Positions 8,474 through 29,632 of a stretch of 35,989 nucleotides of DNA are shown here, piece by piece. The stretch is taken from NCBI GenBank assembly GCA_964457815.1, contig CAYWFA010000001.1, positions 1 to 35,989 on the forward strand. Reading direction: 5' to 3'. Within the stretch, counting starts at the first letter, position 1, and every line of letters begins with the position of its first letter. A program made the position numbers and the translations under genes. Source of the DNA: Candidatus Woesearchaeota archaeon (GTDB taxonomy: Archaea; Nanobdellota; Nanobdellia; Pacearchaeales; GW2011-AR1). The notes under the pieces were generated by a model. That model worked only from the letters and a program-made list of their open reading frames with translations, was not told where the DNA came from and ran no database searches.

Positions 8474-8474
8474 T

Positions 8475-9300: not shown

Positions 9301-10059
9301 TTATTCTAATTCTACCCAGAAGAAATAGGTAGTTGTAGCTGTATCTGTTAAGTGTCCGTTTTCCAATACAAGCATCTCGAAATCATGGGCTCTTCCATCA
9401 AATCCTAATGGACTTTCTTCATCTAAGATAGATGTGAAAATTACACTTGATGTTGAAGTTTCATACAATAAAACTTCTTGGAAGGTGCTGTCTGTAGCAT
9501 TTTGATTTGCTGCAAATATATGTGTACTTGCACAAGCTCCTGCTGCAAATTCTCTGTTGTTTGTATAAAACAAATCATGCACAAGACCAAAACCATTTTC
9601 ATGAGTTCCATCAGTTGAGAATGTTTCATTCACTCCATCAACATCATCATAAGCAATTCCAAACTCTGCTTCTAAGTCTTCGAAATAAGTTCCTTTTTCA
9701 TCTTCAAGGCATTTAACTGCACTCCAATTCAAGGAACCGTTTGTAGAAGCGTAAATTTCACCCTCTGGTGAAGCTAGAGACCAATTGTACATTACATTAT
9801 CTGCATTATCAGCCAACATAATTGTACCTGTAACATTACCAAAATAACCTTGCCAAGACTGAGTTATTGAATAACCAGAAATTGCAAGTTCAGTTACGTT
9901 TCCTGCAATAGCAGTGGTATTTCCTGCAGCACTAGCGTTCATCCTTGAACTTGTTAGATTAACTACATTTGCTCCGAAGGGTTCAACTGCTGAAACCAAT
10001 GCAAACAAAAAGATGCTTAAAACTATTGTTAATAGGAACAATCTATTTAATTTATTCAT
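9301..10059 (-). CDS. Secreted protein, paralog A of the SW-G-YFG/YDFEMLV/FWVELE family
   Basis: 252 aa. Sec signal ...FALVSA/VEPFG. Invariant core GYSITQSWQGYFGNVTGTIMLADNADNVMYNWSLASPEGEIYAS. C-terminus HDFEMLVLENGHLTDTATTTYFFWVELE. GGAGGG lies upstream of the ATG. Confidence 0.85.
   Translation of the reverse strand: MNKLNRLFLLTIVLSIFLFALVSAVEPFGANVVNLTSSRMNASAAGNTTAIAGNVTELAISGYSITQSWQGYFGNVTGTIMLADNADNVMYNWSLASPEGEIYASTNGSLNWSAVKCLEDEKGTYFEDLEAEFGIAYDDVDGVNETFSTDGTHENGFGLVHDLFYTNNREFAAGACASTHIFAANQNATDSTFQEVLLYETSTSSVIFTSILDEESPLGFDGRAHDFEMLVLENGHLTDTATTTYFFWVELE
9749..9914 (-). repeat. Conserved DNA segment R-A, shared with 20969-21134 and 22535-22663
   Basis: Hand alignment to 20969-21134 gives 155/166 identical bases, including most third-codon positions. 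Confidence 0.85.
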
Positions 10060-10227
10060 CTCTTTTATTTTACCCTCCTTTCAATTTTATAAAACTTTTT
10101 AAGTTTATAGTATAAAATGCAGTTATTAATTTATAAATCTTTCCAAATTAGTAACTATTATAAAATTTATATTAATTTAAATACAATTCAACAAAAATTA
10201 AATAATAAAATAAATATTTTATTGAAA

Positions 10228-13200: not shown

Positions 13201-16200
13201 TGTCCAATTATAAAATCCATCTGGGAGAGTGAGTGTAAAATTATTGTATGCTTTATTTATAATTTGAGATTGATTGGACTGGTTGTATGTACCATTTAAA
13301 TATAAGTCTGCAATTGTTAAGTTGTTGTTGTCTGAAGCGTTATAAATTAAACTTATTGTTGATTCATTGAACCACCAAAAATCTGGAGTTATCAAAAATA
13401 TTTCTGGAGGAACATCATTTATATTGAAATGAAAAGTTTCGCTTGTATATGATCTTAAAGAAGAATCAAAACAAGTTACGTTCCAATAATGAGTCCCAAC
13501 TGTTAAATATCCTGAATTACGACTTACATTTGTTGCGTTTTCAACAATAATTCCAGGATAAATAATTTCACCATCCAAAACAATATCACATGTAAGATTT
13601 AATGCCATATTGTCAGTTGCATTAAATTCTAAATCAAGATTGTTTACAAGATTGTTTGCTCCGTCTTCAGGATAAATGAGATTTACAAAAGGATTTTCTA
13701 AATCAACATAAAATATTCTTGTTTCATTTGAAGCGGCTTCTAAACTAGTTGTGTCTGTTACATTCACACTCCAATTATAAATTCCTTGCCCAAGAGAAAC
13801 TGTAAAATTGTTTATAACATTATTTATTATTGACGATTGATTTGTTTGATTTAAATTTCCATTCAATATCAGTGTTGAATTTGCAAGATTATCGTTTATA
13901 TCTGAAACATTATAATAAAGAATTACTTGAGAAGAATTAAACCAACTTAGATTTATTGGAGAAGTTAAATTTACGTTTGGAGGTGTTGCTCCTGCAGAAG
14001 TAACTGTTATAGGAGTTGTAGTTGTACCGTTATAACTGTCATATGTTCCTACAGCAATACATCTAATGTTGTTGTCTGAAGAAAAAGTGTTACCTTCTAT
14101 TGTAAATGTTGTGTTTTGAGAGATATTTGTTACATTTCCTAAATAATGGGGATTTGTTTCTCCCGAATCTAAAACAATATTGCCTGAAGAGCCAATATTT
14201 TGCCATCCAGAAGTGGAAGTATTTCTTTGAATATAAACATTAACATTTCTACATGTTCCAGAAGAGCAATTGACTTGACAAACTGCATCGAATGTATCTT
14301 CTTGAGCAACATAGGGGTCTGTTAAAGGAGAAACCAAATCAGCATGTAAAAATCCTTCAGTGGTTAAGTTAACAATAACATAAGAATTTGTTCCGGAATC
14401 CCAAGAATGGGTCAAAGTTTTTTGGCTGGTATGTGTGTTGTATGCGTTGACAACTAATTTCAATCTATCACTCGGTCCAAGATAAATATCTTGATTTATA
14501 CATGTTGAATTTGTACCTGATGCAGCATTTTCAAATATTCCGCTATTTGCATCATTCCCTAATTGACAAATTAAAGTGTCTCCACTTGAGCCAGAAACAT
14601 AAAGTTTCCAAGTTATTGCTATTTTCCCTGTAGGAGTTGAAGAAGAAAAGGTTCCTGAAAAACTAATGGGGCTTCCGGAAGGAATAACCGCTCCATTATA
14701 ACCCATATACTGGGAAGTCGCACTAACAACATTTACTAATTGTCCTGCGCCAATATCAAATACTACAGAGTTTGAGGTTGCATCTTGGCTGCTTTTCAGT
14801 TTTATTTCTGCTAAAGTGTTTCTTGAAGGATTAAAATTAGAACTTTCATATAATGTTCCTGTAAATAATTCTGGAGTTATTGAAACATTTATTGTTTTAT
14901 TCTCACTGAAACCCGTTCTTCCCCCTTCATCTGTACAAGAAACATACCAAGAATAAACTCCATTATCTAAAAATTCGTTGAATGTTAAATTTATATCTTT
15001 TGTTATAGATGTTTCTGTTTTTTTTAATTGATTATTGATATATAAAGAACAATTTTCAACTGAAGAAGCATCAGAAACATTATATATAAAATACAAGTTA
15101 CTATCATCTGTAATTGTTGAAGAATTTGAAGGATAAACAAGATTAACTGAGGGAGATTCCAAGTCAAAAGAAAAAGTATAATTTGAAGTTCCAAAGAAAC
15201 ACCCATTAGAATTGTCGCAACATTGCACATTCCAGATATAATTTCCGGAAGAAGTATAAGTTTTATTTATGAAATTAAAAGTATTGTTAACTATTGAAGA
15301 TTGATTTGTTGAATTCATATGCCATAACCCCGTAGAATTATCCCACAAACTACAATTCAAAAAAGTTGCAGAAGAAATAGGGGTAAAATTAAAAACAACA
15401 TCTTGGGAATAAAGTATATCTGTGTCTAAAGGAGATCTTAAAAGAACTTCAAATGCTCCTGCTTCATAAATGCTATAACTAATTCTTAAATAACCTGCAG
15501 CCCCTGGACCTCCATTTCTTGAACCTCCAGAAGAAGTTTTAATTGCCCCAGAACCTCCACCTCCATAATTATTACCAGAATTTCCTGCCCCTGTAGTTGT
15601 TCTTCCTGCTCCTCCATCTCCCCCTAATTCAGACGTTCCTGTTCCTGCAGTTCCTCCAGTTGCATTTCCTCCAATCCCTGTTGAACCTGCACCTCCACCA
15701 CCTGCACCGGAATAGCCTCCTGATTGGGTCCCCCCTTTTCCTCCCATATAAATTATGTCCCCTATAGAATTTGCAACACTTCCTCCTTCTCCTCCTGTTC
15801 CTGCACTTAAACCTCCACTTCCCCCTGCAGCATATAATTCGGAACCATCATCAAAATATGTAGGATTTCCTGTTGCCCCATTCCCTGTTCCACCTGCAAC
15901 TCCTGAAGCTACAGCAACTGTATAATTTTCATAGGGGCTAACTGAAAAAGTTTTTTTAACATAAGCTCCTCCTCCACCTCCTCCTGCTCTTCCACTGCCT
16001 CCTCCTGGACGTCCTCCACCAGCACCCCCTCCACCCCAGGCTTCAACAGTAATTTCATAAACTCCTGCTGGAACCATCCAAGTTGTGCTTGAAGAAAAAT
16101 TTACAAGATAATATGTATAAGGATCAACAATATAATCAAATTCAACACTTCCCCCTACAACTTTTAAATCAAAGGTATCCTGAGGGTTTTGTAAATTTGT

Positions 16201-17601
16201 TAAATATATTTTATTGTATTCATTAGAGGTTATAGAAGTAAATTCTGCTATTTTTTCAGTTCCATTCTTTTCATAAACTTCAATAGTTGGATTTCCTGAA
16301 ATTATTCTTGGGTAGAGGGTTATATCTCTTGTATTATCTAAAGGAACTTCAAATGTGACTCTTACATACTCTTGATTTGCAATGGTTTCGGACCAAACAT
16401 CATCTAAATCTTTAACTTCCGGGTAAATATCTGAAATAAGAGTTCTGTTTGAAGATAAATGATCTGCCTTTGTTATGAGAATTATTTCAAAAGTCTGATT
16501 GGATAAATGGGGAACAATCCACTCAACATAATCAAATAACCCATTACCATCTTTATCATATGCATTAAAATCAAGATATACTCCTTCTTCCTTCCAATAA
16601 ACTTGAATTAAATCTATGCTTGAAATCTCTCTTGGAAGACTTGTATAAGATAAAACCTCTTCATAGTGGAGATAGTCTGGAGAAGAAATAATAACTTCTT
16701 TTTTATTTGTTGAAATTAATTTTTCTTGAACTATTGGAGGAGAAGTAGAATATTCTAGGAGAATAATTTCTTGAACATCATCATTTATCAAAATATAATC
16801 TTTTTCTTGAATATTTACTTGAGTGTAATCATTGAAAATTTCTCCATTTTCTTTTTTTAAAACGAAATTTAAAAAATTTGAAACTTCTAAAAAATTGCCT
16901 TCTTCCAATAAACTTACTTTTTTAATCCAATTTACAGGTTTTCCTATTTCGGCATTTCCTTGAATTAATTTATTTTCAACATATCTAACTGCATAAAAAG
17001 TATATGACGTTTTTCCATTTCCCCTTATTAAATCAACAGAATATTCTCCTTCCTCTAAAATCTCAAATAAAAAGATATCGTTAGAACCTAGTCTAGAGAT
17101 TCTTTTACCGGATGGTGAAATTATTCTTAATTCGTAATTTCCTAATCCCTGAAGATTAAATTCCAATGAACTCTCTGAAAAATAAGTGTTGGAATTTTGA
17201 AAATTAAAAGAATAATAATCTGAGAATTTGTTTAAAGAAATATTCGTTGAATAACTTTCAGAATAAACTGATTCTTCTCCTCCAGAGATAAAGTTTTTTT
17301 CGTTCACTTGAAATTCCAGTCTTTCAAATGTTTCTAAAGATTCTATGTCAAAAATATAACTTCCAGATTCTTGAAATAAAAAAGAAAATTCATTTTCACA
17401 GTTGAACTGAAGTTCGTTTGAAGGGGTTTTAACTTTGATGAAACAAGATTCAGAATCTTGAAAATTTAAAAAAAGTTTATCTCCAACAAAATAAGAATTT
17501 TCTTCAGATGCGGAACTAAAAAATAAAGAAAACACCAAAATTAAAACAAGTAAAACAAATAAAATTCCTGCACTTAATCTAATTATCCCCCCTTTGTTCA
17601 T
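10228..17601 (-). CDS. Giant secreted surface/adhesin-like protein (about 2457 aa): N-terminal beta domains, glycine-rich domain, tandem Ig-like modules, CARDB-like domain, C-terminal SW-G-YFG/FYVEIF domain
   Basis: Uninterrupted ORF. The track start at 17622 is a TTG. The ATG at 17601 is preceded by AAGGGAGA and overlaps the upstream wHTH stop (ATGA). Signal/TM is IIRLSAGILFVLLVLILVFSLFFSSA. Domain evidence is given under the sub-features. Confidence 0.9.
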   Translation of the reverse strand: MNKGGIIRLSAGILFVLLVLILVFSLFFSSASEENSYFVGDKLFLNFQDSESCFIKVKTPSNELQFNCENEFSFLFQESGSYIFDIESLETFERLEFQVNEKNFISGGEESVYSESYSTNISLNKFSDYYSFNFQNSNTYFSESSLEFNLQGLGNYELRIISPSGKRISRLGSNDIFLFEILEEGEYSVDLIRGNGKTSYTFYAVRYVENKLIQGNAEIGKPVNWIKKVSLLEEGNFLEVSNFLNFVLKKENGEIFNDYTQVNIQEKDYILINDDVQEIILLEYSTSPPIVQEKLISTNKKEVIISSPDYLHYEEVLSYTSLPREISSIDLIQVYWKEEGVYLDFNAYDKDGNGLFDYVEWIVPHLSNQTFEIILITKADHLSSNRTLISDIYPEVKDLDDVWSETIANQEYVRVTFEVPLDNTRDITLYPRIISGNPTIEVYEKNGTEKIAEFTSITSNEYNKIYLTNLQNPQDTFDLKVVGGSVEFDYIVDPYTYYLVNFSSSTTWMVPAGVYEITVEAWGGGGAGGGRPGGGSGRAGGGGGGAYVKKTFSVSPYENYTVAVASGVAGGTGNGATGNPTYFDDGSELYAAGGSGGLSAGTGGEGGSVANSIGDIIYMGGKGGTQSGGYSGAGGGGAGSTGIGGNATGGTAGTGTSELGGDGGAGRTTTGAGNSGNNYGGGGSGAIKTSSGGSRNGGPGAAGYLRISYSIYEAGAFEVLLRSPLDTDILYSQDVVFNFTPISSATFLNCSLWDNSTGLWHMNSTNQSSIVNNTFNFINKTYTSSGNYIWNVQCCDNSNGCFFGTSNYTFSFDLESPSVNLVYPSNSSTITDDSNLYFIYNVSDASSVENCSLYINNQLKKTETSITKDINLTFNEFLDNGVYSWYVSCTDEGGRTGFSENKTINVSITPELFTGTLYESSNFNPSRNTLAEIKLKSSQDATSNSVVFDIGAGQLVNVVSATSQYMGYNGAVIPSGSPISFSGTFSSSTPTGKIAITWKLYVSGSSGDTLICQLGNDANSGIFENAASGTNSTCINQDIYLGPSDRLKLVVNAYNTHTSQKTLTHSWDSGTNSYVIVNLTTEGFLHADLVSPLTDPYVAQEDTFDAVCQVNCSSGTCRNVNVYIQRNTSTSGWQNIGSSGNIVLDSGETNPHYLGNVTNISQNTTFTIEGNTFSSDNNIRCIAVGTYDSYNGTTTTPITVTSAGATPPNVNLTSPINLSWFNSSQVILYYNVSDINDNLANSTLILNGNLNQTNQSSIINNVINNFTVSLGQGIYNWSVNVTDTTSLEAASNETRIFYVDLENPFVNLIYPEDGANNLVNNLDLEFNATDNMALNLTCDIVLDGEIIYPGIIVENATNVSRNSGYLTVGTHYWNVTCFDSSLRSYTSETFHFNINDVPPEIFLITPDFWWFNESTISLIYNASDNNNLTIADLYLNGTYNQSNQSQIINKAYNNFTLTLPDGFYNWTVNITDTGEYSVIANTRRFYVDTQNPVVYLLHPETSTTSQFSSLNFYFNVTDNLDSELNCNLSIGEKSENNLLASNNANTSILITDLTDGLKVWNVSCIDSAGRYGISENREITIRELPEISLITEDVYWFKDQVLLEYLPSDNTNLSNCSIYINGSFENITYSPLNNQQTNFSINDLSDGFYNWTINCFDTYGLENNSETRFFYKDNSTPQVNLFYPGDEDIIYSSQITFNFTATDNLAQNLTCNFTVDGNITSIIAENGSTNLISRSFISGEHYWNVSCSDYSGNLNISETRKFTTFAPPDVILISPEPDSWLNYTEVEFEYYAYKYEEDIVNCSLYIDNEFVKVNSTPIINDNSNYFTEILSQGNHTWNVYCADSLGVIGSDENRTLYIDIEAPKIVLNSPEPNETLDWNEVLFNFTVEDNLNENISCNVFINNIFYDQVIAENSTPEIYPYLLDDGDYNWTIECADSAENSNTSETRNFTVYAPPQITLYTPDDDFYGFGSAVTFHYLAEDAQIINNCTLYIDEVSNESKSSAELIINPNFTISGIPEGLHNWTVECYDTNNPVPSSANATSKYFSMDFSPPSIILNSPENESGIDFNEDRVYFNWTAIDTLDTVLQCNLTVDGIVRRPNVWVSSNISKREYVLTSILGQGEHWWNVTCWDQMKNTNISELRTFNLTYPDFSVNSSEIFLNESSPKENQLIEITATIRNLAGADISNVTVNFYKGDPDSGGEKIGEDIFINLSKFSERNVSQELIASIGSSEVFVVVDPPLTTNGSYIELNESNNKASKTINVGSWHFFYGDVLTSSNLVLANNDSTKLINWSTENFNQGNIYVADYDSYVSWTSLQAIGKNKINSNSNSDFSEIDLALNTSSFEDSVYNVYTNSGVPKYSQDIYSFKSLIQNVPIINSTNNSNFVTGILWDFSDDTNGTEGEFDLADKEDLVFVSPINKHEQGTYGIYDYELRVPARLREYNAQDSKSAVFYVEIF
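10231..10809 (-). other. C-terminal 193-aa domain of the giant protein, homologous to the small secreted paralogs
   Basis: SWHFFYGDVLTSSNLVLANNDSTKLINWSTENFNQGNIYVADYDSYVSWTSL ... EDLVFVSPINKHEQGTYGIYDYELRVPARL...KSAVFYVEIF is collinear with SWQGYFGNVTGTIMLADNADNVMYNWSLASPEGEIYASTNGSLNWSAV ... SSVIFTSILDEESPLGFDGRAHDFEMLVLENG...TTYFFWVELE. Confidence 0.65.
10810..11160 (-). other. CARDB-like domain within the giant protein
   Basis: IEITATIRNLAGADISNVTVNFYKGDP...EVFVVVDP...IELNESNNKASKTI. The E-x-NE-x-NN ending and overall pattern are typical of CARDB. Confidence 0.6.
11161..13990 (-). repeat. Ten consecutive ~94-aa (about 283-bp) Ig-like modules arranged as five alternating A-B pairs
   Basis: Each module starts with a P-x-[VI]-x-L-x-x-P-like boundary. 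Each contains ...[FY]-x-[FY]-x-x-x-D...C-x-[LI]...G-x-[YH]-x-W-x-V-x-C-x-D...SE-x-R-x-F. A-type modules (L-x-x-P..W[FL]N...LNG..NQSNQS.IIN..NNFT...G.YNW) alternate with B-type modules (...ATDN...L.C...). Confidence 0.8.
15475..16085 (-). other. Glycine-rich domain (locally GC-rich) within the giant protein
   Basis: TWMVPAGVYEITVEAWGGGGAGGGRPGGGSGRAGGGGGGAY...GGSGG...GGGGAGSTGIGGNATGG...GGPGAAGYLRISY. The W-x-VPAGV...WGGGG...start and the Y-x-R-I-x-Y end match the glycine-rich domain recalled from phage tail-fibre-like and bacterial surface proteins. Confidence 0.6.
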
Positions 17602-17837
17602 TTTTCTCCCTTTATTTGCCAAAGATTTATTCTTCCTACACGAAAGCCATTAATCCTGTTATTTATTTGAAGTCTTAGACAACGAGTTTGAATGGAATGC
17701 CAAGGTTTTTTAATTTCATCTGCAATTTCCTGGGTAGATTTTGGATTAACGGAGCTAGAAAGAGACTTGACTATTTCTAATTCTAACACATCCTCTTTTT
17801 TGCGATTAACCGTACGGTTAATCTTACTTTTAATCAT
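17598..17837 (-). CDS. Small winged-helix DNA-binding protein; its stop overlaps the ATG of the giant gene
   Basis: 79 aa. SVNPKSTQEIADEIKKPWHSIQTRCLRLQINNRINGFRVGRINLWQI fits helix-turn-helix plus wing. Its TGA stop overlaps the giant-gene ATG (ATGA, 17598-17601). Confidence 0.7.
   Translation of the reverse strand: MIKSKINRTVNRKKEDVLELEIVKSLSSSVNPKSTQEIADEIKKPWHSIQTRCLRLQINNRINGFRVGRINLWQIKGEK
17805..17822. promoter_or_regulatory. Perfect 18-bp palindrome attaaccgt|acggttaat, candidate operator
   Basis: Read directly from the sequence. It lies 15-32 nt downstream of the wHTH ATG (17837), inside codons 6-11. Confidence 0.35.
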
Positions 17838-20571: not shown

Positions 20572-21273
20572 TTATTCAAGTTCTACCCAAAAGTAGTATG
20601 TTGTTGGATTTGTATCTATTCCATGGCCGTCTTCAAGAACCATCATTTCAAAGTCGTGAGGGTTGTTATCAAAACCATCTGCATCATTTAATAAAAGAGA
20701 TGCAAAGATTATATTTGGACCATCTGTAAGCAAAACTTCATCAAATGTTCCCGTTCCCACGCTGTTATACAATTTTGTGCTATTACATAAGCCTGTAGTA
20801 AATTGTTTGTTGTTTGTGAAAAACTCTGCGTGATTGTTTAAATTAAATGTTTCATTCAATCCATCTGCATCAGCAGTAGAAATTCCAAACATGTTTTCAA
20901 AAAAAGTCATATTTGTAGGCTCATCATAACATTGAATACCTTCCCAAGCTACAGAAGAGGAATTAGATGCGTAAATTTCACCCTCTGGTGAAGCCAGAGA
21001 CCAATTGTACATAACATTATCTGAATTATCTGCCAACATAATTGTACCTGTAACGTTACCGAAATAACCTTGCCAAGACTGGGTTATCGAATAACCAGAA
21101 ATTGCAAGTTCTGTTATATTTCCTGCAATAGCAGAATCATTTCCTGCAGAAGTAACGTTAGCCCGTGAGCTTGTCAAGTTGGTCACGACAGCTCCATTAG
21201 GTAATGCAGACACCAATGAAGACAATATCAAGATTGTACAAAAAACCAATACAAAATTAATTATTTTTCTCAT
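20572..21273 (-). CDS. Secreted protein, paralog B of the SW-G-YFG/YDFEMLV/FWVELE family
   Basis: 233 aa. Signal ...LSSLVSA/LPNG. Core GYSITQSWQGYFGNVTGTIMLADNSDNVMYNWSLASPEGEIYAS. C-terminus HDFEMMVLEDGHGIDTNPTTYYFWVELE. GGAGGT lies 7 nt upstream of the ATG. Confidence 0.85.
   Translation of the reverse strand: MRKIINFVLVFCTILILSSLVSALPNGAVVTNLTSSRANVTSAGNDSAIAGNITELAISGYSITQSWQGYFGNVTGTIMLADNSDNVMYNWSLASPEGEIYASNSSSVAWEGIQCYDEPTNMTFFENMFGISTADADGLNETFNLNNHAEFFTNNKQFTTGLCNSTKLYNSVGTGTFDEVLLTDGPNIIFASLLLNDADGFDNNPHDFEMMVLEDGHGIDTNPTTYYFWVELE
20969..21134 (-). repeat. Conserved DNA segment R-B
   Basis: 155/166 identical to 9749-9914. Positions 20975-21097 are 121/123 identical to 22541-22663. 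Confidence 0.85.
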
Positions 21274-21892
21274 TTTGTTTACCTCCTTTCATCTCTATAA
21301 TTTTTTTTAAAAAAACAGGATTTTGGTAAATTGGAAAAAGAGAAGAAAAAGAAATATTATTTATTTCATTTAAAGAATAAAATTCAAGCTTAACACTGTT
21401 CTCTTGCTTTTTAGAAATATTTTCTATTGTTTGTTGGATTTTTTTATCTTCCAAAAATATGATTAAAGAAGAATTTGATTTTTTTATATCCGCAAAAATT
21501 GCATATATGCTCTTAAAGTTGTCTTTAACCTTATAAATAAACTCCTCTAGAAAGAATTGTGAAGATTTATTCTCCAAGAGCCAAATTTTAAAGATTGATT
21601 TTTGATAATCTTCTAAATCTAGATTTTTTTTCTCTCCAAAACCATTGGTAAGTAAAATTGAATAACAAATATCTTTTGAAATTGAAAAGAGATTCCTTGG
21701 TTTTCCTTTTTCAAAAGCACCCGTCTTTTCCTTGGAAACAATTTGAGCTGCTTCAAGCAATTTTAACTGCTGACTGATAAATGAAACTGTTGTTTTTGTT
21801 TTTTCTGCAATCTCAATTGGGGAGGAAGGCTTCTCCGAGATAATTTTGAGAATTTCCCACCTCGGAGATGCCAGAAAAGAATCAAGTTCCAT
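21257..21892 (-). CDS. ArsR-like winged-helix transcriptional regulator with C-terminal extension
   Basis: 211 aa. SPRWEILKIISEKPSSPIEIAEKTKTTVSFISQQLKLLEAAQIVSKEKTG...PRNLFSI is a typical ArsR/SmtB-type HTH. Its 3' end overlaps the paralog B start by 17 nt. Confidence 0.75.
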   Translation of the reverse strand: MELDSFLASPRWEILKIISEKPSSPIEIAEKTKTTVSFISQQLKLLEAAQIVSKEKTGAFEKGKPRNLFSISKDICYSILLTNGFGEKKNLDLEDYQKSIFKIWLLENKSSQFFLEEFIYKVKDNFKSIYAIFADIKKSNSSLIIFLEDKKIQQTIENISKKQENSVKLEFYSLNEINNISFSSLFPIYQNPVFLKKIIEMKGGKQNEKNN

Positions 21893-22062: not shown

Positions 22063-22851
22063 TTATTCTAATTCAATCCAAAAGTAATAAGTTGTTGTTT
22101 CCGTATCTGTTAAATGCCCGTTTTCAAGAACAAGCATTTCAAAATCATGGGGATTGTTATCAAAACCAAAAACATTTTCATTTAACAAAGAGGTAAATAT
22201 GATACTACGTGTAGTTGGTTCATATAAAAGAACTTCTTCAAATTTATTGTCTTCGCCTTGTCCAGAATTGGTGAAAACTTGAGTGTTTCTACATTCTCCT
22301 TCTGAAAAATTAAGATTATTTGTATAAAATGTATTATGGCCTGAACCTAAAAGGGTGAAGGTTTCGTTTACTCCATCCACATCATCATCAGCAATTCCAA
22401 ACATTGCTTCCAAAATTGTTAAATTGGTTCCATGTTGATTTGTATCTCCGGGAGTTTCTGCTCCAATGTAAGTTCCATCTGCGTCAAAATTAAAACATTG
22501 AACATCTGCCCAAGAAATTGAGTCATTTGTAGAAGCATAGATTTCACCCTCTGGTGAAGCCAGAGACCAATTGTACATAACATTATCTGAATTATCTGCC
22601 AACATAATTGTACCTGTAACATTACCAAAATAACCTTGCCAAGACTGGGTTATCGAATAACCAAATATACTTAGCTCCGTAACATTTCCCGCCAAAGCTG
22701 GAATACCTGTTGCGTCATCTGAATCTGCCCTGCTAGAGGATAAATTAACAACATTTGCTCCAAAGGGTTCAATTGCTAAAACCAAGGAAATGTTCAATAA
22801 AAATATTAGCACAGCAACGAAAAGTATTACTTGTTTCATCCTCTTTACCAT
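22063..22851 (-). CDS. Secreted protein, paralog C of the SW-G-YFG/YDFEMLV/FWVELE family
   Basis: The track ORF starts at a TTG (22866). The first ATGs are at 22851 (MVKRMKQ...) and 22839. Signal ...ISLVLA/IEPFG. Core GYSITQSWQGYFGNVTGTIMLADNSDNVMYNWSLASPEGEIYAS. C-terminus HDFEMLVLENGHLTDTETTTYYFWIELE. Confidence 0.85.
   Translation of the reverse strand: MVKRMKQVILFVAVLIFLLNISLVLAIEPFGANVVNLSSSRADSDDATGIPALAGNVTELSIFGYSITQSWQGYFGNVTGTIMLADNSDNVMYNWSLASPEGEIYASTNDSISWADVQCFNFDADGTYIGAETPGDTNQHGTNLTILEAMFGIADDDVDGVNETFTLLGSGHNTFYTNNLNFSEGECRNTQVFTNSGQGEDNKFEEVLLYEPTTRSIIFTSLLNENVFGFDNNPHDFEMLVLENGHLTDTETTTYYFWIELE
22535..22663 (-). repeat. Conserved DNA segment R-C
   Basis: Positions 22541-22663 are 121/123 identical to 20975-21097. 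Similarity drops sharply outside this segment. Confidence 0.85.
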
Positions 22852-22895
22852 CGATAAAATAAACAAAAAGAGCTTTATAATTCTTTCTTTTTTAA

Positions 22896-23765
22896 TTAAT
22901 TTATTTCTCCTAATAGAGTTTTAAGTCTTTCAATGTCCCTTGATAAAGGGCTCTTTTTCTGTATTTCTTTTAAAGCTTCTGTGTATTTTTGAACTTTGTC
23001 TAAAACTTTATCCAACTCTTCTTTTTCCGCAAAATTCAAGATCTTTGTTTTTAAATTATCTACGTCTTTTGAGTTTTGTTCTATATTTGCCTTAGATTCT
23101 TGAAGCTGAGAATTAAAAGTATCTAAATCTTGTATTTTCTTTCTCATTTCGCTGTAAATTGTTTGGACTTTATCTGTTTGGATATTGATTGTTCCTTCTA
23201 TCTTTTTTATTCCAATGAGTTCTTTTTTTATTTCTTCGCTAAGTTTAATTATTTCTTCTATTCCTCTGAAAAAGCTCATTTTACGCCGTGTTTCTTTTAG
23301 TTCTTCCATAACTTGGTCCAATATAGCTTCATTTCCTTCAAGATTTGCTTTGAGTGCTTCTATTTTAACGTTCTGCCTTTCTAAATCCATCATGAATTTA
23401 TCCGGTTTTATTGATTCTACCAAATCAATGGCTTTTATAGATTTCAGCTCCATTGTTTGAATTGTTCTATCTCTATCAAGAATCATTGATCTCAATTCTC
23501 CAATCTGTTCGCTTACCCTTGTAAATCTTTCTGTGAATGATTTCCTTACTTCTTGAAAAGCTTCTTGGCTTGCTTTCAACTTGTCTATTTCTGTAGATAA
23601 TTTAAGAATATTTTGGGAATCTGAAGAAACAGAAGAAACAATTGGTTTTTCTTCCTGAGGAGGTTTTGAAACTTGCTCTTTATTTTCTTCTATGTTTTCA
23701 CTACTTGGATCCGTTTCTTCTTGATTTTCACTTTCTTTTTTCTTTGATTTCAAAAAATCAAACAT
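22896..23765 (-). CDS. Coiled-coil protein with acidic low-complexity N-terminus
   Basis: 289 aa, ATG start. MFDFLKSKKKESENQEETDPSSENIEENKEQ, then about 230 aa of heptad-like K/E/L/I-rich sequence. No TM segment. Confidence 0.7.
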   Translation of the reverse strand: MFDFLKSKKKESENQEETDPSSENIEENKEQVSKPPQEEKPIVSSVSSDSQNILKLSTEIDKLKASQEAFQEVRKSFTERFTRVSEQIGELRSMILDRDRTIQTMELKSIKAIDLVESIKPDKFMMDLERQNVKIEALKANLEGNEAILDQVMEELKETRRKMSFFRGIEEIIKLSEEIKKELIGIKKIEGTINIQTDKVQTIYSEMRKKIQDLDTFNSQLQESKANIEQNSKDVDNLKTKILNFAEKEELDKVLDKVQKYTEALKEIQKKSPLSRDIERLKTLLGEIN

Positions 23766-24081
23766 TGGATATCTCCTCTTCTAGCTTATTTAACAAAGAA
23801 TCTATTTTTTTAAAATCTTTCTCATTGAAACCTGTACGTAATAAAAGTATCTTGGAATGAATTATATGGGATTTTGAAGAAAGTAACCTTTTAATCTTTT
23901 TTTCTTTTATTTTTTTTATTTTTAAATCTAAATTTAATTGTTTTAATTTTAACTCTGAAATAAGAGAATTTTGAAGAACGTCTAATCTTTCATTTTTATC
24001 TTTTATCTTGTTTATTTTTTTATGCTTTTTTTTATCAATAAACGAAGAAGATATCTTCTTTAACCTCTTTAATTTTTCCAT
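23758..24081 (-). CDS. Small Lys-rich coiled-coil protein
   Basis: 107 aa, ATG start. Its 3' end overlaps the start of the next gene by 8 nt. Lies immediately downstream of the 1120-aa ATPase gene. Confidence 0.55.
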   Translation of the reverse strand: MEKLKRLKKISSSFIDKKKHKKINKIKDKNERLDVLQNSLISELKLKQLNLDLKIKKIKEKKIKRLLSSKSHIIHSKILLLRTGFNEKDFKKIDSLLNKLEEEISNV

Positions 24082-24148: not shown

Positions 24149-27100
24149 TTACTCTTTCTTCTTTTTTTTCTGTTCTTCTTTTTCATAAATCTCTCTAGCT
24201 TTTTTTGCTTCTTCAACAGATTTTTCTATTTCTGAAGCATCCAATAATTTCTTTTCAACCTTTTTTGGTTTTTTTCCTATCTTTTCCCATTGCTTTTGTA
24301 ATCTCGGTCCAAGTCCTTCAACATAAATATCCACAACAGAGAAATTTCCAGTCATAAGTTTATCTTTTATTAGTTTAAGTTCCATCTTGAAATCAAAAAT
24401 GTCTATCTTTTCTTTTTCAAGCTGATTTACTTGATTCTCAAAATCATCTATTATATCATTGTATTTATTGTATTTTTCCAGCTCTTCATCTGAAAGCCTT
24501 CTTGTATTGTGAAGGATTGGCCTGAAATTTACAAAATAAGGTTTACCTTTATTGTATTCTGCATTTTGAAACATTGCAACTCCAACTTCTGCTCTAACTA
24601 AAGATTTCAAAAATTCTTCTCCGTATTTTGTTTTTATTCTTTCTAAATCAGATTCTTCTATTGTTCTTGTTTGAATTTCAGTATTAATGTTTGCTTTAAC
24701 TTCTCCAACAAAATCGCTTAATACCTGTGAAATTAAAACTACTCCCATTCCCCATTTTCTAAACTCTCTACAAGCTCTTTCAATTTGCAAGAAACCTTCA
24801 CCACTTCCACCAAATTTTGAAAGAAGTCTATGAACTTCATCGAAAACAAGTAGGACCTTAAGTTCTTGGGCTTCTTTTGGATCTGATTTAAATATTTGTC
24901 TAATTACACTTGCAATAAAAGTGTCAATATCCTTGGGATCAAGTTTATTTAGTGCGAATATTTGTATCTGTCCTGGATGAATATATTTTTCTATTTCAAT
25001 TATTTCTCTCGCATGTGAAATTTGCCTTATATTTCCGGGGAAAGCTCTGGAATCAGAAGGTTTTAATCCAAACTTAGGATAAAAAGACATCATTTTTTTA
25101 TCTTCGCATTTTCTCAATAACCCAGACCATTGTGCTGTTGGATCAAAAACAATAACTGCTACGTTTTTTAATAAGGCTTCTTCAACCAATACTTGTGCAG
25201 AAATACTTTTACCCATACCTGTAGCTCCTGCAACGATTGCGTGGGTTTTTAATTTCTCTGGTTCAAGATAAACAGGATATTTTGATTCAGCAATTAATCC
25301 TAATTTAAAAAAACTTTTGTTTGCCTTTGGAAGAGTAGATAAATCCAAAGAAATCCCATATCTTTTTCTTTTTTCTTTGTATCTTTTATAAAGAAAAACA
25401 TTAAGTAAAATGAAACTTATGAAAGAAAGTATTGCAAAGAAAATCCAAAGAGGTATCCCTAGAAAAGAATAAAGATAAAGAGGTTTACGCACTGAAAAAG
25501 GTGCTGTGGCACTGGAAGAAAATCCTAAATATTTTGCATTCACAACAAACAAATAATCTCCTTCAGAAAAATTTGAAGGAATATTAATGTAATCAACTAT
25601 TGACAAAGCTTTTTTTATTTCAACTTCTTGGATTTCTCTGAAAGAAACTGTTGAATCTTTCTCATTAATGATTAATTTTTCCAATAAAACTTTGTATTCC
25701 TGATCAATCAACAAATTTTGTAAATTAAGTTTATAATTCAAATTTTCTCCTGGGTTAACAATGTTTTTAAACAAATCTATTTCCATCAAAAGGGTTTCTA
25801 TTGGCAATCTGTTTTCAATTATTTTTATTTTTATGGGGATTTCTTTTTCTACATCTCCTGTTAATTTTAAAATACCTTCATAAGTGCCTACTGGCTTTGT
25901 TCCATAAAAAGTTATTTTTATTTCTTCCCCATTTCCAGGTTCCAATATAAGAGCGTCTCTATCTAATTTTACAAAATCTGTTAATTCTGGAGAAAGAGAT
26001 AAAAGAAGATTAATGTTTGAAAGTTTAAAATTGTAAATACCTATTGTATCTTCAACAAAAGTGTTTTGTCTTATTTCTTTGAAAATATCTTTTGTGCTTA
26101 TCCAAAAATCTTCTCCCGATTTTTGTAATTCTTCGATAATTTGTTTGACATCTTCTCCGGGCTCTTCATCATATGGGCCGGTTTCATAAGGATTGTTTGT
26201 TGATCCCAAGTTCATTAAAGTTAAAGTTATATTGTGGCTTAAAAAAGTGGTATTTTGATAAAAAGTGAGGAGATCATAATAATTATTATATCCCAAAAGA
26301 GTTGCTATTATAGGATATTGTTGAGGAATAATTTCTGGTGTTAATTCGTAATATCCTAATTCATTGCTTGTGGTGGAATCTCCTGCAATGTAAACACTAA
26401 CTGAATCTAATGGATTTCCCAAGGAATCTTTAACATATCCTGAAACAAGAGGAAAAATCACCTCTTCTGTGCTAGGAGTAACTGTTTGCAAAGTAATATT
26501 GTGGTTTATTGTGTTGTTTGTGAAATTAACGGTTATATTTGAAAAATAGCTATCATATCCTTCACCATATGCAATTAGATTGTGTGTTCCGGGCATTAAA
26601 TTTAAAGAAATGTTGTAAAATCCATTTATGTCTGTGGTTGCATTTGTACCCGCAACAACCACTGTGATGTTTTCTATAGGAGAATTGCTTGAATTTACAA
26701 CATATCCGTAAATATTTGTGTTTATAACCTCTCCCATCCCTCCTGCGGGACATTCGTCATAGGGATCTGTGAAAAAGTAATACCTTATATTTGAAGATGG
26801 AAGCATAGGCAAAATCATTTGAAAATTAACTGTTGTATTTGGACTGTAACCTTTTTGTAACTCTTCAATATGTGTTACATAAACTAAATTTCCTCCTCCA
26901 TCAACCAAAATTCCCAAATCAAATATCCCGTAATTTCCATCCCATCTGTAAGTGTGTGTAGAGGGGATATTTGTGATATTTCTTGTTCCCACCATCACCC
27001 ACATTGTATCATAAAAAGTGTTTGAAGCACAATCTACCCCTGAAGAACACCCTGTCCAAGAATCAATCTGGACAGCAGTGGCAGGAATTAATGAATCAAA

Positions 27101-27511
27101 ATCAATTGTTGAAGAAGTGGAAGCATAAACTTCCTTTCCCCCTATTGCATCCTGTTGGATACAATTAAAAAACAAACCGGTTGTTGAAATTTCTCCAGAA
27201 TTAACATCTTCAAATAAAAGCTCTGTGTATCCTGGAACTCTTAAAGCCAAGCCATACAATCCATGCCAATAAGAGGTTTGAAATTTAATTGTTACGTTTA
27301 ATTCAGAAATATATCCTGCTTGTGAAGGAACATAAGTTAAGAAACCTGTGGAAAGAATGTTTGTTATAAACAAAACACAAATTACAAATGTCGAAAATAA
27401 AGCAAATGCGAGCAATAAAAACTCAAAAGTATCTTCTTTCTTTTTTTGACGTAATTCTCTTCTTGCAATGGCAATTGCTTTTTTAGAAACTCTTTCACCT
27501 TTCTTATGCAT
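24149..27511 (-). CDS. Two-TM membrane protein: extracellular paralog-like domain, two CarboxypepD_reg-like and further beta-sandwich domains, and a cytoplasmic HerA/FtsK-superfamily (DUF87-like) ATPase
   Basis: 1120 aa. Basic N-terminus, TM1 (aa 29-53), ectodomain of about 625 aa, TM2 (aa about 678-708, LYLYSFLGIPLWIFFAILSFISFILLNVFLY). Walker A AGATGMGKS (25205-25231), Walker B LLVFDEVHRL, and REFRKWGMGVVLISQVLSDFVGEVKANINTEIQTRT. K/E-rich coiled-coil tail. TDINGFYN and SNELGYYEL mark the CarboxypepD_reg-like repeats. Confidence 0.9.
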   Translation of the reverse strand: MHKKGERVSKKAIAIARRELRQKKKEDTFEFLLLAFALFSTFVICVLFITNILSTGFLTYVPSQAGYISELNVTIKFQTSYWHGLYGLALRVPGYTELLFEDVNSGEISTTGLFFNCIQQDAIGGKEVYASTSSTIDFDSLIPATAVQIDSWTGCSSGVDCASNTFYDTMWVMVGTRNITNIPSTHTYRWDGNYGIFDLGILVDGGGNLVYVTHIEELQKGYSPNTTVNFQMILPMLPSSNIRYYFFTDPYDECPAGGMGEVINTNIYGYVVNSSNSPIENITVVVAGTNATTDINGFYNISLNLMPGTHNLIAYGEGYDSYFSNITVNFTNNTINHNITLQTVTPSTEEVIFPLVSGYVKDSLGNPLDSVSVYIAGDSTTSNELGYYELTPEIIPQQYPIIATLLGYNNYYDLLTFYQNTTFLSHNITLTLMNLGSTNNPYETGPYDEEPGEDVKQIIEELQKSGEDFWISTKDIFKEIRQNTFVEDTIGIYNFKLSNINLLLSLSPELTDFVKLDRDALILEPGNGEEIKITFYGTKPVGTYEGILKLTGDVEKEIPIKIKIIENRLPIETLLMEIDLFKNIVNPGENLNYKLNLQNLLIDQEYKVLLEKLIINEKDSTVSFREIQEVEIKKALSIVDYINIPSNFSEGDYLFVVNAKYLGFSSSATAPFSVRKPLYLYSFLGIPLWIFFAILSFISFILLNVFLYKRYKEKRKRYGISLDLSTLPKANKSFFKLGLIAESKYPVYLEPEKLKTHAIVAGATGMGKSISAQVLVEEALLKNVAVIVFDPTAQWSGLLRKCEDKKMMSFYPKFGLKPSDSRAFPGNIRQISHAREIIEIEKYIHPGQIQIFALNKLDPKDIDTFIASVIRQIFKSDPKEAQELKVLLVFDEVHRLLSKFGGSGEGFLQIERACREFRKWGMGVVLISQVLSDFVGEVKANINTEIQTRTIEESDLERIKTKYGEEFLKSLVRAEVGVAMFQNAEYNKGKPYFVNFRPILHNTRRLSDEELEKYNKYNDIIDDFENQVNQLEKEKIDIFDFKMELKLIKDKLMTGNFSVVDIYVEGLGPRLQKQWEKIGKKPKKVEKKLLDASEIEKSVEEAKKAREIYEKEEQKKKKKE
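26765..27322 (-). other. Ectodomain segment (aa about 64-249) of the ATPase protein, homologous to the small secreted paralogs
   Basis: AGYISELNVTIKFQTSYWHGLYG ... GGKEVYASTSSTIDFDSL ... NLVYVTHIEELQKGYSPNTTVNFQMILPMLPSSNIRYYFFTD is collinear with AGNVTELAISGYSITQSWQGYFG ... EGEIYASTNGSLNWSAV ... SVIFTSILDEESPLGFDGRAHDFEMLVLENG...TTYFFWVE. Confidence 0.6.
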
Positions 27512-27619: not shown

Positions 27620-28369
27620 ATGGCGTTAACAAAAATGTTTAAAAAATCTGATGCTCCCGATGAACTTCCGGATTTGGCAATAGATGAATTAAAGAAAGAT
27701 TTAAAGAAAGATTATTCTGAAAAACCTCAAGAATCAGGAGCAACTCAAGAAGCCGTTGAAACAAAACAAGAAACTGAAAAAACGGAAGAAAAAGAAGAAG
27801 TCCCAAAAAAAGAACAAGAAACACCTGAAGAATCTCAGGAGGAAAATACTGAAGAAGGAACAACTGAACAAGAAACAGATAATGAAAGTGACAAACAAGA
27901 AGAAATAGAAAGAACAGAAATCGAAGAAGTTGAAGAAAAGCCAAAAGAAACAATAGAAGAAAAAGTAAACTTGGAAAAAAGTTTTTTCAATCCTTTAATA
28001 AATGAATTAAAAAAAGATGATTTTGATCCTGCAAAAATAAACGCGTGGTATCAAAAAAGATTTTCTGATAAAAGTGTAATTGAAGAAATGAAAGAATACT
28101 GGGAAACTCAAAAAAATGAATTTATAACTGAAACAGTTGAAAAAGAGTTCAAAGCAAGGATAAAAGAAAGGATGAATAAACTGCAACAATTAGAAACCGA
28201 ATGGCAGGAAATTTACATAAAGTTGGCTGAAAAAGAAGAAGAAATGAAGAAGGAAGAAAAAAATGTCAAAAAAATAATAAAAGATTTTTCTGCTATTGTT
28301 GGTAAAAAGGGAAATCTTAAAAAAGCGCATAAATCTAAGATAAGTAATGAAAAGAAAAAGAAAAGCTAA
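27620..28369 (+). CDS. Highly acidic E/K-rich coiled-coil protein
   Basis: 249 aa, ATG start. Long E/T/K/Q low-complexity stretch, then a helical K/E-rich C-terminal half. Divergent from the ATPase gene. Confidence 0.65.
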   Translation: MALTKMFKKSDAPDELPDLAIDELKKDLKKDYSEKPQESGATQEAVETKQETEKTEEKEEVPKKEQETPEESQEENTEEGTTEQETDNESDKQEEIERTEIEEVEEKPKETIEEKVNLEKSFFNPLINELKKDDFDPAKINAWYQKRFSDKSVIEEMKEYWETQKNEFITETVEKEFKARIKERMNKLQQLETEWQEIYIKLAEKEEEMKKEEKNVKKIIKDFSAIVGKKGNLKKAHKSKISNEKKKKS

Positions 28370-28652
28370 AAAATTATTAAATGTTATACTTTTACTTATA
28401 TTTGTTCTTGTAATTTTAATTTTTGTTGAAGTAAAATTTTGGGAATTGCTTGAAAAAAAAGAAATAAAAATGATTTCTCTTGAAGATAGGTGTTCGATAA
28501 TGTTTGAAAATGTTTTACATGCAATAAAAGATAGTTCTGGATGTGAGAATTACTGTAGGGCAGAGTGTATAACAAGGGAAATGGATTTTTACAAATCTGA
28601 ATTTGAAAAAATAGAAAATTCATGTAATAATTGTAATTGTTATTGTAAATAA
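28347..28652 (+). CDS. Small N-terminally anchored Cys-rich protein
   Basis: 101 aa. TM segment LLNVILLLIFVLVILIFV, then 8 Cys (C..C.NYC.AEC....C.NC.C.C). Its start overlaps the previous gene by 23 nt. Confidence 0.55.
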   Translation: MKRKRKAKKLLNVILLLIFVLVILIFVEVKFWELLEKKEIKMISLEDRCSIMFENVLHAIKDSSGCENYCRAECITREMDFYKSEFEKIENSCNNCNCYCK

Positions 28653-28653
28653 A

Positions 28654-29262
28654 ATGGATGATTTGGAAGAAAGGTATCTTGAAGGCGTTGAAAAAGAGGG
28701 AGAGATTTTATTAGAGGGTCTTAAAGGCAATAAAAGTCTGGGGGAATTAGAAAAGGAATATTCAAAAAAAGTGAAAGAAATAAGAAAGATATATGAAAAA
28801 TCCTTGAAAAAAGAGCTGAAAAAAGAAAAAGAAAATCCTTCAACTAAAAAATCAAAGAAAGATAAAGAAAAAACCAAGGAATTTAAAGCAGAAGGCGTGG
28901 AGTTGGAAAGGGGTTGGATTGAAGATAAAAAAATTAAAACAGAAGTAAATTCTTATAATTTTAAAAGAAAAATTAAAAATTTTTTTTATAAAATAAGTCC
29001 AAACAAAATAATTTACTTGTTTCATAGATTAAAAATAATTAAAATTAATTTTTTCAAACAAATTAATTTTTCGTTTAAACGAACATTTAATAAAATTTCT
29101 ACAAAAGTAATTACTATTTTAACATACATAAAAGAAGGGTTTATGAAAGTTGTATCTGAATTTAAAAGATTGTTTTCATTTTTTTCAAAACAAAAAAAGA
29201 AAGAAAAAACTGAAAAACAAGAAAAAGATAAAGAAGAAAAAGATGGAAATAAAAACAAGTAA
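28654..29262 (+). CDS. Lys/Glu-rich hypothetical protein
   Basis: 202 aa. The ATG lies 1 nt after the previous stop. Charged helical N- and C-termini flank an amphipathic, basic middle section. Confidence 0.55.
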   Translation: MDDLEERYLEGVEKEGEILLEGLKGNKSLGELEKEYSKKVKEIRKIYEKSLKKELKKEKENPSTKKSKKDKEKTKEFKAEGVELERGWIEDKKIKTEVNSYNFKRKIKNFFYKISPNKIIYLFHRLKIIKINFFKQINFSFKRTFNKISTKVITILTYIKEGFMKVVSEFKRLFSFFSKQKKKEKTEKQEKDKEEKDGNKNK

Positions 29263-29632
29263 AACCAAGATAACCAAAGAAGAAGCCTTGGAATTTAAAT
29301 TGAAAGGTATTGAGAAAAACTTAAGAGAAGTTTTTTTATTTTTTGCTTCAGAAGGTTTAATTGATATAAGAAAAATACAAATAAACGAGGAATTTGAAAA
29401 CAATTTAAAACAAAAAATAAATGATTATCTTAAAGAAAAAAACCAAGATTTAAATGAAAGGTTTTCTGAATTAAGAAAAAAAGGCGAAGATTTGGGAGTT
29501 TTAAATTTTAAATTGGTTATGATTCCCTTAAAAATAAAGGTTTTTATGGCTAGTTACAACAAAAAAGATGCTGAAAATGTTTTAAGAAGGATAAATGAGA
29601 TCGAAACAGAAATCAATAAAATAAAAGACTAG
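29243..29632 (+). CDS. Small helical K/E-rich protein (129 aa from MEIKTSK)
   Basis: The track ORF 29150..29632 overlaps the previous gene for 113 nt in another frame. The internal ATG at 29243 reduces the overlap to 20 nt. Confidence 0.5.
   Translation: MEIKTSKTKITKEEALEFKLKGIEKNLREVFLFFASEGLIDIRKIQINEEFENNLKQKINDYLKEKNQDLNERFSELRKKGEDLGVLNFKLVMIPLKIKVFMASYNKKDAENVLRRINEIETEINKIKD

Follow-up and report, generated by a model that had tools for sequence, protein, structure and literature searches.

Results

The window analysed here (35,989 nucleotides of contig CAYWFA010000001.1; G+C ~30%) comes from a DPANN archaeon and carries at positions 24149..27511, on the minus strand, one complete open reading frame (ORF; ATG start, stop codon at 24149-24151). 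Its product, a protein of 1120 residues, is assigned by homology to the SPEARE family as a compact member. The chain runs from a basic N-tail through a first transmembrane helix (TM1), an ectodomain of ~628 residues and a second transmembrane helix (TM2) to a HerA-type P-loop ATPase and a helical, K/E-rich tail. The nearest relatives, all from metagenome-assembled genomes (MAGs), are labelled Woesearchaeota, Pacearchaeota, Nanoarchaeota and Nanobdellota.

The 1120-residue protein

A homologue search over 5.8 billion proteins gave 92 homologues; most were full-length (50-85% identity, identical Pfam content), and 86 of the 92 carried TM helices only upstream of Walker A, in the layout of the 1120-residue protein. 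A scan of one genome per GTDB species gave at least 574 loci encoding a relative. Since more than 90 independent proteins share the full-length architecture, which recurs at 574 or more species loci, an artefactual fusion of two genes through a frameshift was excluded. The original prediction, which had been made from the letters of the window, had itself raised that possibility and had proposed a search for the same fusion in MAGs; the former proved not to be the case and the latter was successful. The ORF it had described is complete, the strand, which it had not given, is minus, and the motifs it had quoted (TDINGFYN, SNELGYYEL, AGATGMGKS, LLVFDEVHRL and REFRKWGMGVVLISQ) were all found in the translation.

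Two membrane-spanning peaks only were seen in the hydropathy profile, at residues ~29-55 and 684-712. The first belongs to residues 1-55 (27347..27511; this and all further parts of the gene on the minus strand), that is, the basic cytoplasmic N-tail and TM1, as delimited by hydropathy, structural model and 55 homologues; the second is TM2 (25376..25462; hydropathy and family layout), which is followed by the basic juxtamembrane stretch YKRYKEKRKRY. The net charge was +7 for the N-tail (residues 1-28) and +5 for the stretch after TM2; 13 of the 16 N-X-S/T sequons were located between TM1 and TM2, and the family-wide density of sequons per 100 residues was 2.5 in the ectodomain vs 0.31 in the cytoplasmic parts. 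Because of the charge bias, the sequons, conserved cysteines and the homology of the middle region to secreted proteins with signal peptides, this region is placed outside the cell, and the protein is predicted, from these features and hydropathy, to have an N-in/C-in topology with two TM helices and ~628 residues outside. Cleavage by signal peptidase after TM1 was considered and is disfavoured: position -3 was not consistently small in the 55 homologues, and both the n-region and the h-region are long. TM1 is probably retained as an uncleaved signal anchor.

An AlphaFold2 model was built on 55 homologues (mean predicted local distance difference test (pLDDT) 80.5). It contained a helix at 10-55 (N-tail and TM1); a beta-rich domain at 82-247 (pLDDT ~90), lying within the ectodomain module designated D1 (residues 59-250; 26762..27337; alignment of profiles, hidden Markov model (HMM) search and model); two CarboxypepD_reg-like beta-sandwiches at 263-345 and 355-430 (together residues 263-430; 26222..26725; Pfam and model); a disordered acidic linker at 435-454, within residues 431-468 (26108..26221; model and family comparison), which also hold a short helix and open the part of the protein that is constant in the family, short and giant members included, in which a Gly-rich linker takes this place; two further immunoglobulin (Ig)-like sandwiches of the ASH/PapD-like type at 469-565 and 574-674 (together residues 469-675; 25487..26107; model, fold search and alignment), membrane-proximal and conserved in SPEARE; TM2 at 688-715; the RecA-like ATPase at 735-1000; and the helical tail at 1008-1119. 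Pfam returned two CarboxypepD_reg domains and weak Ig-like matches in the ectodomain, and no match to laminin-G in the whole protein. The N-in/C-in arrangement, the large ectodomain (put at 625 residues), the paralogue-like domain, the two CarboxypepD_reg-like domains and the two additional beta-sandwich segments of the original prediction were thus all recovered, to the extent that evidence from sequence allows.

The ATPase (residues 735-1003; 24503..25309) was delimited by Pfam, by sequence and fold matches in the PDB and by the alignment of 55 homologues. It carries Walker A (GATGMGKS), Walker B (LLVFDEVH), an arginine motif (REFRKWG) and a sensor SQ. Among the 55 sequences G762-A763, G765 and G767-K768 of Walker A were invariant and S769 nearly so; D891 and H894 of Walker B were invariant, E892 and V893 nearly so; the key residues of E911-R912, R915-G921 (REFRKWG) and S928-Q929 were invariant. 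The ATPase was the best conserved segment (mean identity to the target 79%), followed by residues 1004-1080 of the tail (73%). Judged by its motifs, the ATPase is catalytically complete.

DUF87 (45.2 bits; cut-off 23.2) and HerA_C (38.5 bits; cut-off 22) were the Pfam models matched above threshold; with the intact motifs they bear out the P-loop ATPase of the HerA/FtsK superfamily that had been predicted. The closest relatives by sequence in the PDB were HerA hexameric translocases (9x1l, 4d2i, 8wiv, 8xau and 9c1m), and the fold was matched by HerA structures 4d2i, 8xau, 8woc and 9x1m. The models of related motors remained below their cut-offs: AAA_10 (VirB4/TraG-type) 20.8 bits vs 27.5; TrwB_AAD_bind 16.9 vs 20.5; FtsK_SpoIIIE 16.9 vs 24, the match being confined to the Walker A region; ResIII 20.4 (E 5e-4) vs 22.5, covering generic P-loop elements only; NCBIfam TraD models 16-26 vs 366-648; TraC 22.8 vs 567; CedD, the top NCBIfam match, 36.8 vs 600; HerA equivalogs 27-34 vs 800-970. 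No match was obtained for the N-terminal domain of VirB4 (CagE_TrbE_VirB, PF03135) or for a winged-helix (gamma) domain, the tail being helical; protease, nuclease and methylase domains were absent from the Pfam and NCBIfam matches of the protein. Only 20-45 residues separate TM2 from Walker A, with two short strands modelled between residues 715 and 762, and the N-terminal HAS barrel of HerA is therefore absent. On the evidence of sequence and model, the motor has a HerA-clade core and is not a HerA orthologue.

The tail (residues 1004-1120; 24152..24502), helical or coiled-coil in the model and conserved, corresponds to the K/E-rich coiled coil that had been predicted. A Woesearchaeota subgroup (P0080-P0089 and locus L002) carries tetratricopeptide repeats (TPR); Walker A stands at about residue 676 of ~1300 in these proteins, and the repeats therefore lie in a C-terminal tail that is lengthened on the cytoplasmic side, suggesting that the subgroup has further partners in the cytoplasm.

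Membership in the SPEARE family

The C-terminus of the SPEARE from Ca. Nanohaloarchaeum antarcticus was aligned by BLASTP with residues 493-1064 of the target (38% identity, E 4e-113), and the alignment covered both Ig-like domains, the TM helix, the ATPase and the tail; the sequence used was that of the C-terminal 662 residues as printed in Fig. S18 of the supporting information of Hamm et al. 2019 (text from optical character recognition, with minor errors). A homologue at one of the related loci, KYK27349.1, is 45% identical to the target over residues 356-1098 and 31% identical in D1, and is tabulated among the relatives of the SPEARE intracellular domain (Table S3 of Hamm et al. 2019, PMC6642349). 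On these two alignments rests the assignment of the target to the family. Hamm et al. gave the name SPEARE to such proteins in Nanohaloarchaeota, found the intracellular part to be the most conserved one, and reported similar sequences in Woesearchaeota, Aenigmarchaeota, Micrarchaeota and Altiarchaeales (PMC6642349). Versions of 655 and 717 residues were also counted as SPEARE by these authors (PMC6642349), so size does not strictly define the family. La Cono et al. 2023 (PMC10266531) described the plan as signal peptide, ectodomain, TM helix, VirB4-like ATPase and coiled coil; they disputed the earlier protease and nuclease assignments, found no endonuclease domain on re-analysis, took the intracellular part for a VirB4/TraG-like ATPase instead, and put forward a secretion channel. 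The original prediction had stated that no membrane-tethered HerA/FtsK-class motor with a large surface-exposed portion was known to its author; this premise of novelty fails, because the target is homologous to the constant module of SPEARE proteins, the architecture of which had already been published (PMC6642349, PMC10266531).

To estimate the extent of the family, 1.84 billion representative proteins were scanned in full by HMMER with the ATPase domain alone; this gave 341 clusters at E <= 1e-30. The module (50-79% identity, full coverage) was found near the C-terminus of proteins of ~500 to 6873 residues, 49 of the best 150 being longer than 2000. Two of the giants, P0339 (3000 residues) and P0466 (6873 residues), begin with a signal or anchor and continue with thousands of residues of adhesin-like repeats; their C-termini consist, as in the target, of linker, two Ig-like domains, TM helix, ATPase and helical tail. 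By sequence comparison these five elements make up a constant module, to which distal ectodomains of ~250 to more than 6000 residues are joined. Many genomes hold a short-form paralogue of ~780 residues (signal peptide, two Ig-like domains, TM helix, ATPase and tail) that lacks D1, and several family paralogues with very different ectodomains, giant adhesin-like ones included, are carried by single genomes.

Giants sharing the C-terminal module were seen in non-halophilic metagenomes (P0466; P0393, 6253 residues; P0425, 5743 residues; and others). In P0339 and P0466 the module is preceded by a glycine- or serine-rich linker (GSGGGGGGGG in P0466); a comparable Gly-rich linker occurs in the Nha. 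antarcticus SPEARE, and the acidic linker 435-454 of the target takes the equivalent position. The linker may serve as a hinge or be cut, since the ectodomain and the TM/cytoplasmic parts of SPEARE were observed in different size fractions of a gel (Hamm et al. 2019, PMC6642349). One short form (L039, 11215-13575, 786 residues) shares its contig with the target's closest homologue (L004) and has neither D1 nor a downstream coiled-coil partner of the kind described below; it is preceded at 9179-11218 by a surface protein of 679 residues that ends in similar Ig-like domains, a TM helix and a cytoplasmic helical tail, with no ATPase.

D1 and the small secreted paralogues

D1 is homologous to secreted proteins of ~230-270 residues, of which four copies are encoded in one co-directional array on the minus strand: 22063..22866 (signal peptide, then VEPFGA, ending in YYFWIELE); 20572..21273; 9301..10059, the query of the family search; and 8475..9218, a divergent fourth member (27% identical to that encoded at 9301-10059). 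HHalign of the D1 family alignment against that of the small paralogues gave a probability of 98.4% (E 6.9e-15) over nearly the whole mature paralogue, and matches of the D1 HMM to small paralogues reached E 1.9e-15. In every long-form homologue, the most distant (TPR-tailed) ones included, TM1 is followed by D1, and in 20 loci small paralogues lie on the same strand further downstream.

At least 1009 proteins, named only 'hypothetical', make up the small-paralogue family, for which no Pfam domain was seen. Its members bear a canonical signal peptide; their mature N-terminus (VEPFGA) is invariant, and sequons as well as the C-terminus (YYFWVELE) are conserved. Their identity (55-88%) is high for surface proteins. 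In the model of a small paralogue (pLDDT 72) residues 22-56, the first 35 of the mature chain and conserved in sequence, were disordered and of low confidence. Foldseek of the small paralogues and D1 against the PDB and viral models gave nothing at E <= 0.001, and the small-paralogue profile gave no match to PDB sequences; identities of the TasA, cannulae or chaperone-usher type were considered for these domains and are unsupported, since both searches were empty.

Two observations concern the array itself. The listed ORFs 7511-8575 (354 residues) and 8475-9218, both on the minus strand, overlap by ~100 nucleotides; the true start of the former is probably an internal Met before a signal-peptide-like stretch (MNKQFQKK...). 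At 19346-20446 (minus strand) a polytopic membrane protein of 366 residues is encoded that has an intramembrane HESGH (HExxH-like) motif and no Pfam match; it lies downstream of the paralogue genes in 11 loci and may be a protease dedicated to processing the secreted paralogues.

The coiled-coil partner and other neighbours

The gene at 22896..23765 (minus strand) encodes a coiled-coil protein of 289 residues, hereafter the partner. Its hydrophobic-basic motif MxxFxKKKK is N-terminal; the protein further has a disordered stretch of acidic residues and a core of helices that contains ERFTRxSEQIGELR. Of 47 long-form loci, 44 have it downstream of the ATPase gene and on the same strand, and one more has it relocated; it also adjoins the family member of 3000 residues, and it was absent from the eight loci of the short paralogue. 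Conservation across MAGs reached 92% identity. No assignment was obtained from Pfam, PDB or PADLOC. The N-terminus reads MFDFLKSKKK (MGLFGKKK in relatives), and the ESCRT-III/PspA-like look of this end is an impression only; 'chromosome segregation ATPase' and 'SbcCD' are mislabels given to it in source databases.

Between the ATPase and partner genes a K-rich helical protein of 107 residues is encoded (23758..24081, minus), which held that position in 20 loci. An ArsR/HVO_A0114-type helix-turn-helix regulator (21257..21892, minus), placed between paralogue genes, was kept in 14-16 loci. The co-directional array further contains a surface protein of 2464 residues (10228..17622, minus) with Gly_rich_2 (residues 511-716) and many Ig-like repeats; large surface proteins related to it flank the ATPase gene in most loci. 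A divergent set on the plus strand (27620..29632), whose members are small helical proteins, acidic or K/E-rich, and a single protein of 101 residues with a TM helix and a Cys-rich part, recurred beside the ATPase gene in ~18-29 of 81 loci. The recurrent neighbours are thus large surface proteins with a C-terminal TM helix and a helical tail in the cytoplasm, helical proteins that are small and K/E-rich, the small TM and Cys-rich protein and the ArsR/HVO_A0114-type regulator. Neither DNA-processing enzymes, a relaxase nor a nuclease were recognised in the conserved neighbourhood; type IV secretion system components (T4SS; VirB6/VirB3/VirB8, a CedA-like channel, pilin-like genes) were recognised neither in the window nor in related loci; and NurA, Mre11, Rad50, Sir2 and DUF4297 genes were absent from the neighbours. 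A defence system was considered and rejected: PADLOC gave generic HerA/mad8 P-loop matches only and no partner genes. The idea of a 'split SPEARE' was likewise dropped, the 2464-residue protein having no significant similarity to the first 367 residues (part of the ectodomain) of the printed Nha. antarcticus SPEARE.

At the other end of the window a second DUF87/HerA-type ATPase is encoded (1658-3673, minus; 671 residues, no TM helix seen; weak match to the PADLOC mad8 model) next to a coiled-coil protein of 152 residues (3674-4132, minus). As a conserved partner, in the manner of nanohaloarchaea, this ATPase was rejected: it is 20 kb away and absent from all 81 related loci. A tyrosine recombinase (6016-7265, minus; Phage_integrase, E 4e-48) and a small Recombinase/zinc-ribbon ORF (4498-5656, plus) were also noted, beside genes that we take, by eye, to be those of ribosomal proteins L18e, L13 and S9; the contig looks chromosomal rather than like a mobile element.

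Discussion

The architecture itself is already known as SPEARE, and a close homologue was tabulated in 2019. Searches for a description of this D1-type subfamily, of its partner or of the family of paralogues were empty. Within the searchable literature, several points appear not to have been described before: the compact D1-type subfamily, the homology of D1 to small secreted proteins that form a very large family, the close linkage of the coiled-coil partner, the affinity of the SPEARE motor to the HerA clade (vs VirB4 or a restriction enzyme), and the breadth of the family in Woesearchaeota and Pacearchaeota. [quoted passage not shown] A HerA-clade ring-ATPase module here spans hundreds of Woesearchaeota and Pacearchaeota species with ectodomains of 250 to more than 6000 residues, and the 1120-residue form is a compact, well-modelled representative of it, more tractable than a giant of 6000-9000 residues; the strictly linked partner and the kinship of D1 with the paralogues offer testable handles on the coupling of surface structure to motor in ultra-small archaeal symbionts.

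The reading preferred here, tentatively and at somewhat less than even chances, is that of a ring motor, scaffolded by the partner, which by analogy would translocate a polymer beneath a D1/paralogue surface structure at the point of host contact. By analogy with the FtsK-HerA superfamily, the cytoplasmic domain would assemble into a hexameric ring held against the membrane by the linker of ~20 residues, and such a ring would gather 6-12 TM helices and six ectodomains in one complex. D1 would dock onto the small secreted paralogues or nucleate their assembly, and the D1/paralogue assembly would form a surface structure for contact with another (host) cell; in giant members the adhesin part would be contained in the same chain as the motor. 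The ring, scaffolded by the coiled-coil partner, would then use ATP to pass DNA or unfolded protein through the membrane of the symbiont itself. To our knowledge, the membrane-anchored FtsK-HerA ATPases (FtsK/SpoIIIE, TrwB/VirD4, VirB4, CedB/CedD and EccC) all drive transport of macromolecules. Several observations weigh against translocation. The conserved neighbourhood contained no relaxase, nuclease, VirB6/CedA-like channel or identifiable substrate; a conduit for DNA or protein may need more than the two TM helices of each protomer; all secreted neighbours bear ordinary Sec signal peptides, so that a dedicated exporter is unneeded; and short-form paralogues occur without D1 and without the partner, both of which are therefore not essential to the core activity. 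A bolder form of the proposal, considered unlikely, sees in the D1-type compact SPEARE, the small paralogues and the partner a new archaeal surface appendage, in which the basal subunit of an extracellular, homo-oligomeric fibre or tube would be fused covalently, through the membrane, to a HerA-type ring ATPase and would serve host docking and movement of macromolecules in DPANN archaea; if true, this appendage would be unrelated to type IV filaments, chaperone-usher pili, threads, cannulae and T4SS.

Several of the same observations would be accommodated by a motor that acts mechanically or in assembly and passes nothing across the membrane, a possibility we rate as doubtful though deserving attention. 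The ATP-driven ring would cluster the ectodomains and the paralogue assembly, put them under tension or remodel them, the partner and the helical tails of the neighbours would form a lattice under the membrane, and adhesion or envelope architecture would be controlled from the inside out, with a logic comparable to mechanotransmission by MacB/FtsEX or to the ArlI-ArlX scaffold of the archaellum. The conserved neighbours are almost all envelope or cytoplasmic coiled-coil proteins, with no DNA-processing enzyme among them; many surface proteins encoded nearby have a C-terminal TM helix and a helical tail in the cytoplasm; conservation is very strong in two helical modules, the partner and the tail of the ATPase; export of the secreted components is by Sec; and a motor that works on its own ectodomain would be expected to be constant with a hypervariable ectodomain. 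The analogy is, however, functional only, no homology to MacB or ArlX having been found, and we know of no FtsK-HerA superfamily member that is a pure mechanotransducer. That the protein is instead a type IV secretion-like 'straw', a channel with a VirB4/TraG-homologous ATPase through which effectors are injected into the host, was proposed for this architecture, to the module of which the target is homologous, by La Cono et al. 2023 (PMC10266531), and the topology of two TM helices and a nucleotide-binding domain (NBD) resembles that of VirD4-type coupling proteins; yet AAA_10, TrwB_AAD_bind and TraC were all sub-threshold while HerA models scored higher, the VirB4 N-terminal domain was missing, no second VirB4-like ATPase is adjacent (the DUF87 gene at 1658-3673 being 20 kb off and absent from the 81 loci), and no VirB6/VirB3/VirB8 or pilin-like genes were recognised, and we hold this account improbable.

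A housekeeping DNA pump of the FtsK kind, acting in chromosome segregation or division and tethered to the envelope by chance, would agree with the wide distribution and strong conservation in Woesearchaeota and Pacearchaeota (at least 574 species hits) and with the chromosomal context near ribosomal protein genes; HerA was, moreover, reportedly proposed by Iyer and co-workers in 2004 as the archaeal counterpart of FtsK. This explanation is nevertheless very unlikely: the FtsK_SpoIIIE model stayed at 16.9 bits vs its cut-off of 24, a gamma/winged-helix domain for DNA recognition was missing, the neighbours are surface proteins, and several paralogues per genome with hypervariable ectodomains fit a role in division poorly. 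Hardly any weight is left for an intracellular enzyme resembling type III restriction enzymes that degrades DNA taken up via the surface part, as interpreted by Hamm et al. 2019 (PMC6642349). The weak ResIII match over the P-loop (E 5e-4, 20.4 bits) speaks for it; this match falls below the cut-off of 22.5 and covers generic elements only, nuclease and methylase domains were found by neither Pfam nor NCBIfam, fold and sequence point to HerA-type ring ATPases, and SPEARE contains no endonuclease domain according to La Cono et al. 2023 (PMC10266531), so that this interpretation is already largely refuted. For the preferred translocating ring, the original prediction had imagined an external filament or contact sensor coupled directly to a hexamer; such a coupling is plausible and close to the proposal of La Cono et al. 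(PMC10266531).

Comparison with known systems

The MoxR-based 'novel secretion system' (Makarova 2015, PMC5898192) was compared and set aside, its components being different. From FtsK/SpoIIIE the target differs in that the motor-domain model remained below its cut-off and no gamma/winged-helix domain is present. CedB and CedD are TM-bearing HerA-clade ATPases of crenarchaeal DNA import (PMC11868833); these and VirB4 resemble the target as ATPases of the HerA/VirB4 clade that have TM helices, and they serve macromolecule transfer at the membrane (PMC11868833), but CedB and CedD possess a cytoplasmic VirB4-like N-terminal domain and no large ectodomain, and neither a CedA/VirB6-like channel nor Ced pilin genes were present at the target locus. 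VirD4/TrwB shares the order of cytoplasmic N-terminus, TM1, extracytoplasmic loop, TM2 and cytoplasmic NBD of the FtsK-HerA superfamily and forms a membrane-apposed hexamer; its loop, however, has a few tens of residues vs ~628 residues of folded domains in the target, which also lacks the all-alpha domain, a relaxase and a T4SS context. HerA (PDB 4d2i, 8xau and 9x1l) was the best match in both sequence and fold, down to the context of Walker A, the DEVH Walker B and a REGRKxG-like arginine motif; in contrast to HerA, the target has no HAS barrel, is embedded in the membrane by two TM helices and is accompanied by neither NurA/Mre11/Rad50 nor defence-partner genes.

Against the described SPEARE giants of 3000-12000 residues, the target is small (1120 residues, ectodomain 628), and no laminin-G, protease-like or toxin-like regions were detected in it. 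Its distal ectodomain is made of D1, paralogous to small secreted proteins, and of CarboxypepD_reg domains; it has a long basic N-tail with the signal-anchor TM1; a coiled-coil partner is encoded downstream, in place of the second VirB4-like ATPase reported in nanohaloarchaea; and its lineage is Woesearchaeota/Pacearchaeota. Common to both are the homologous series of two Ig-like domains, TM helix, P-loop ATPase and helical tail, with the TM helix just upstream of the conserved module (TM2, 684-712, in the target), the disposition of the ectodomain outside and of the ATPase and coiled coil inside, the highest conservation in the intracellular part and the occurrence of multiple size variants in one genome.

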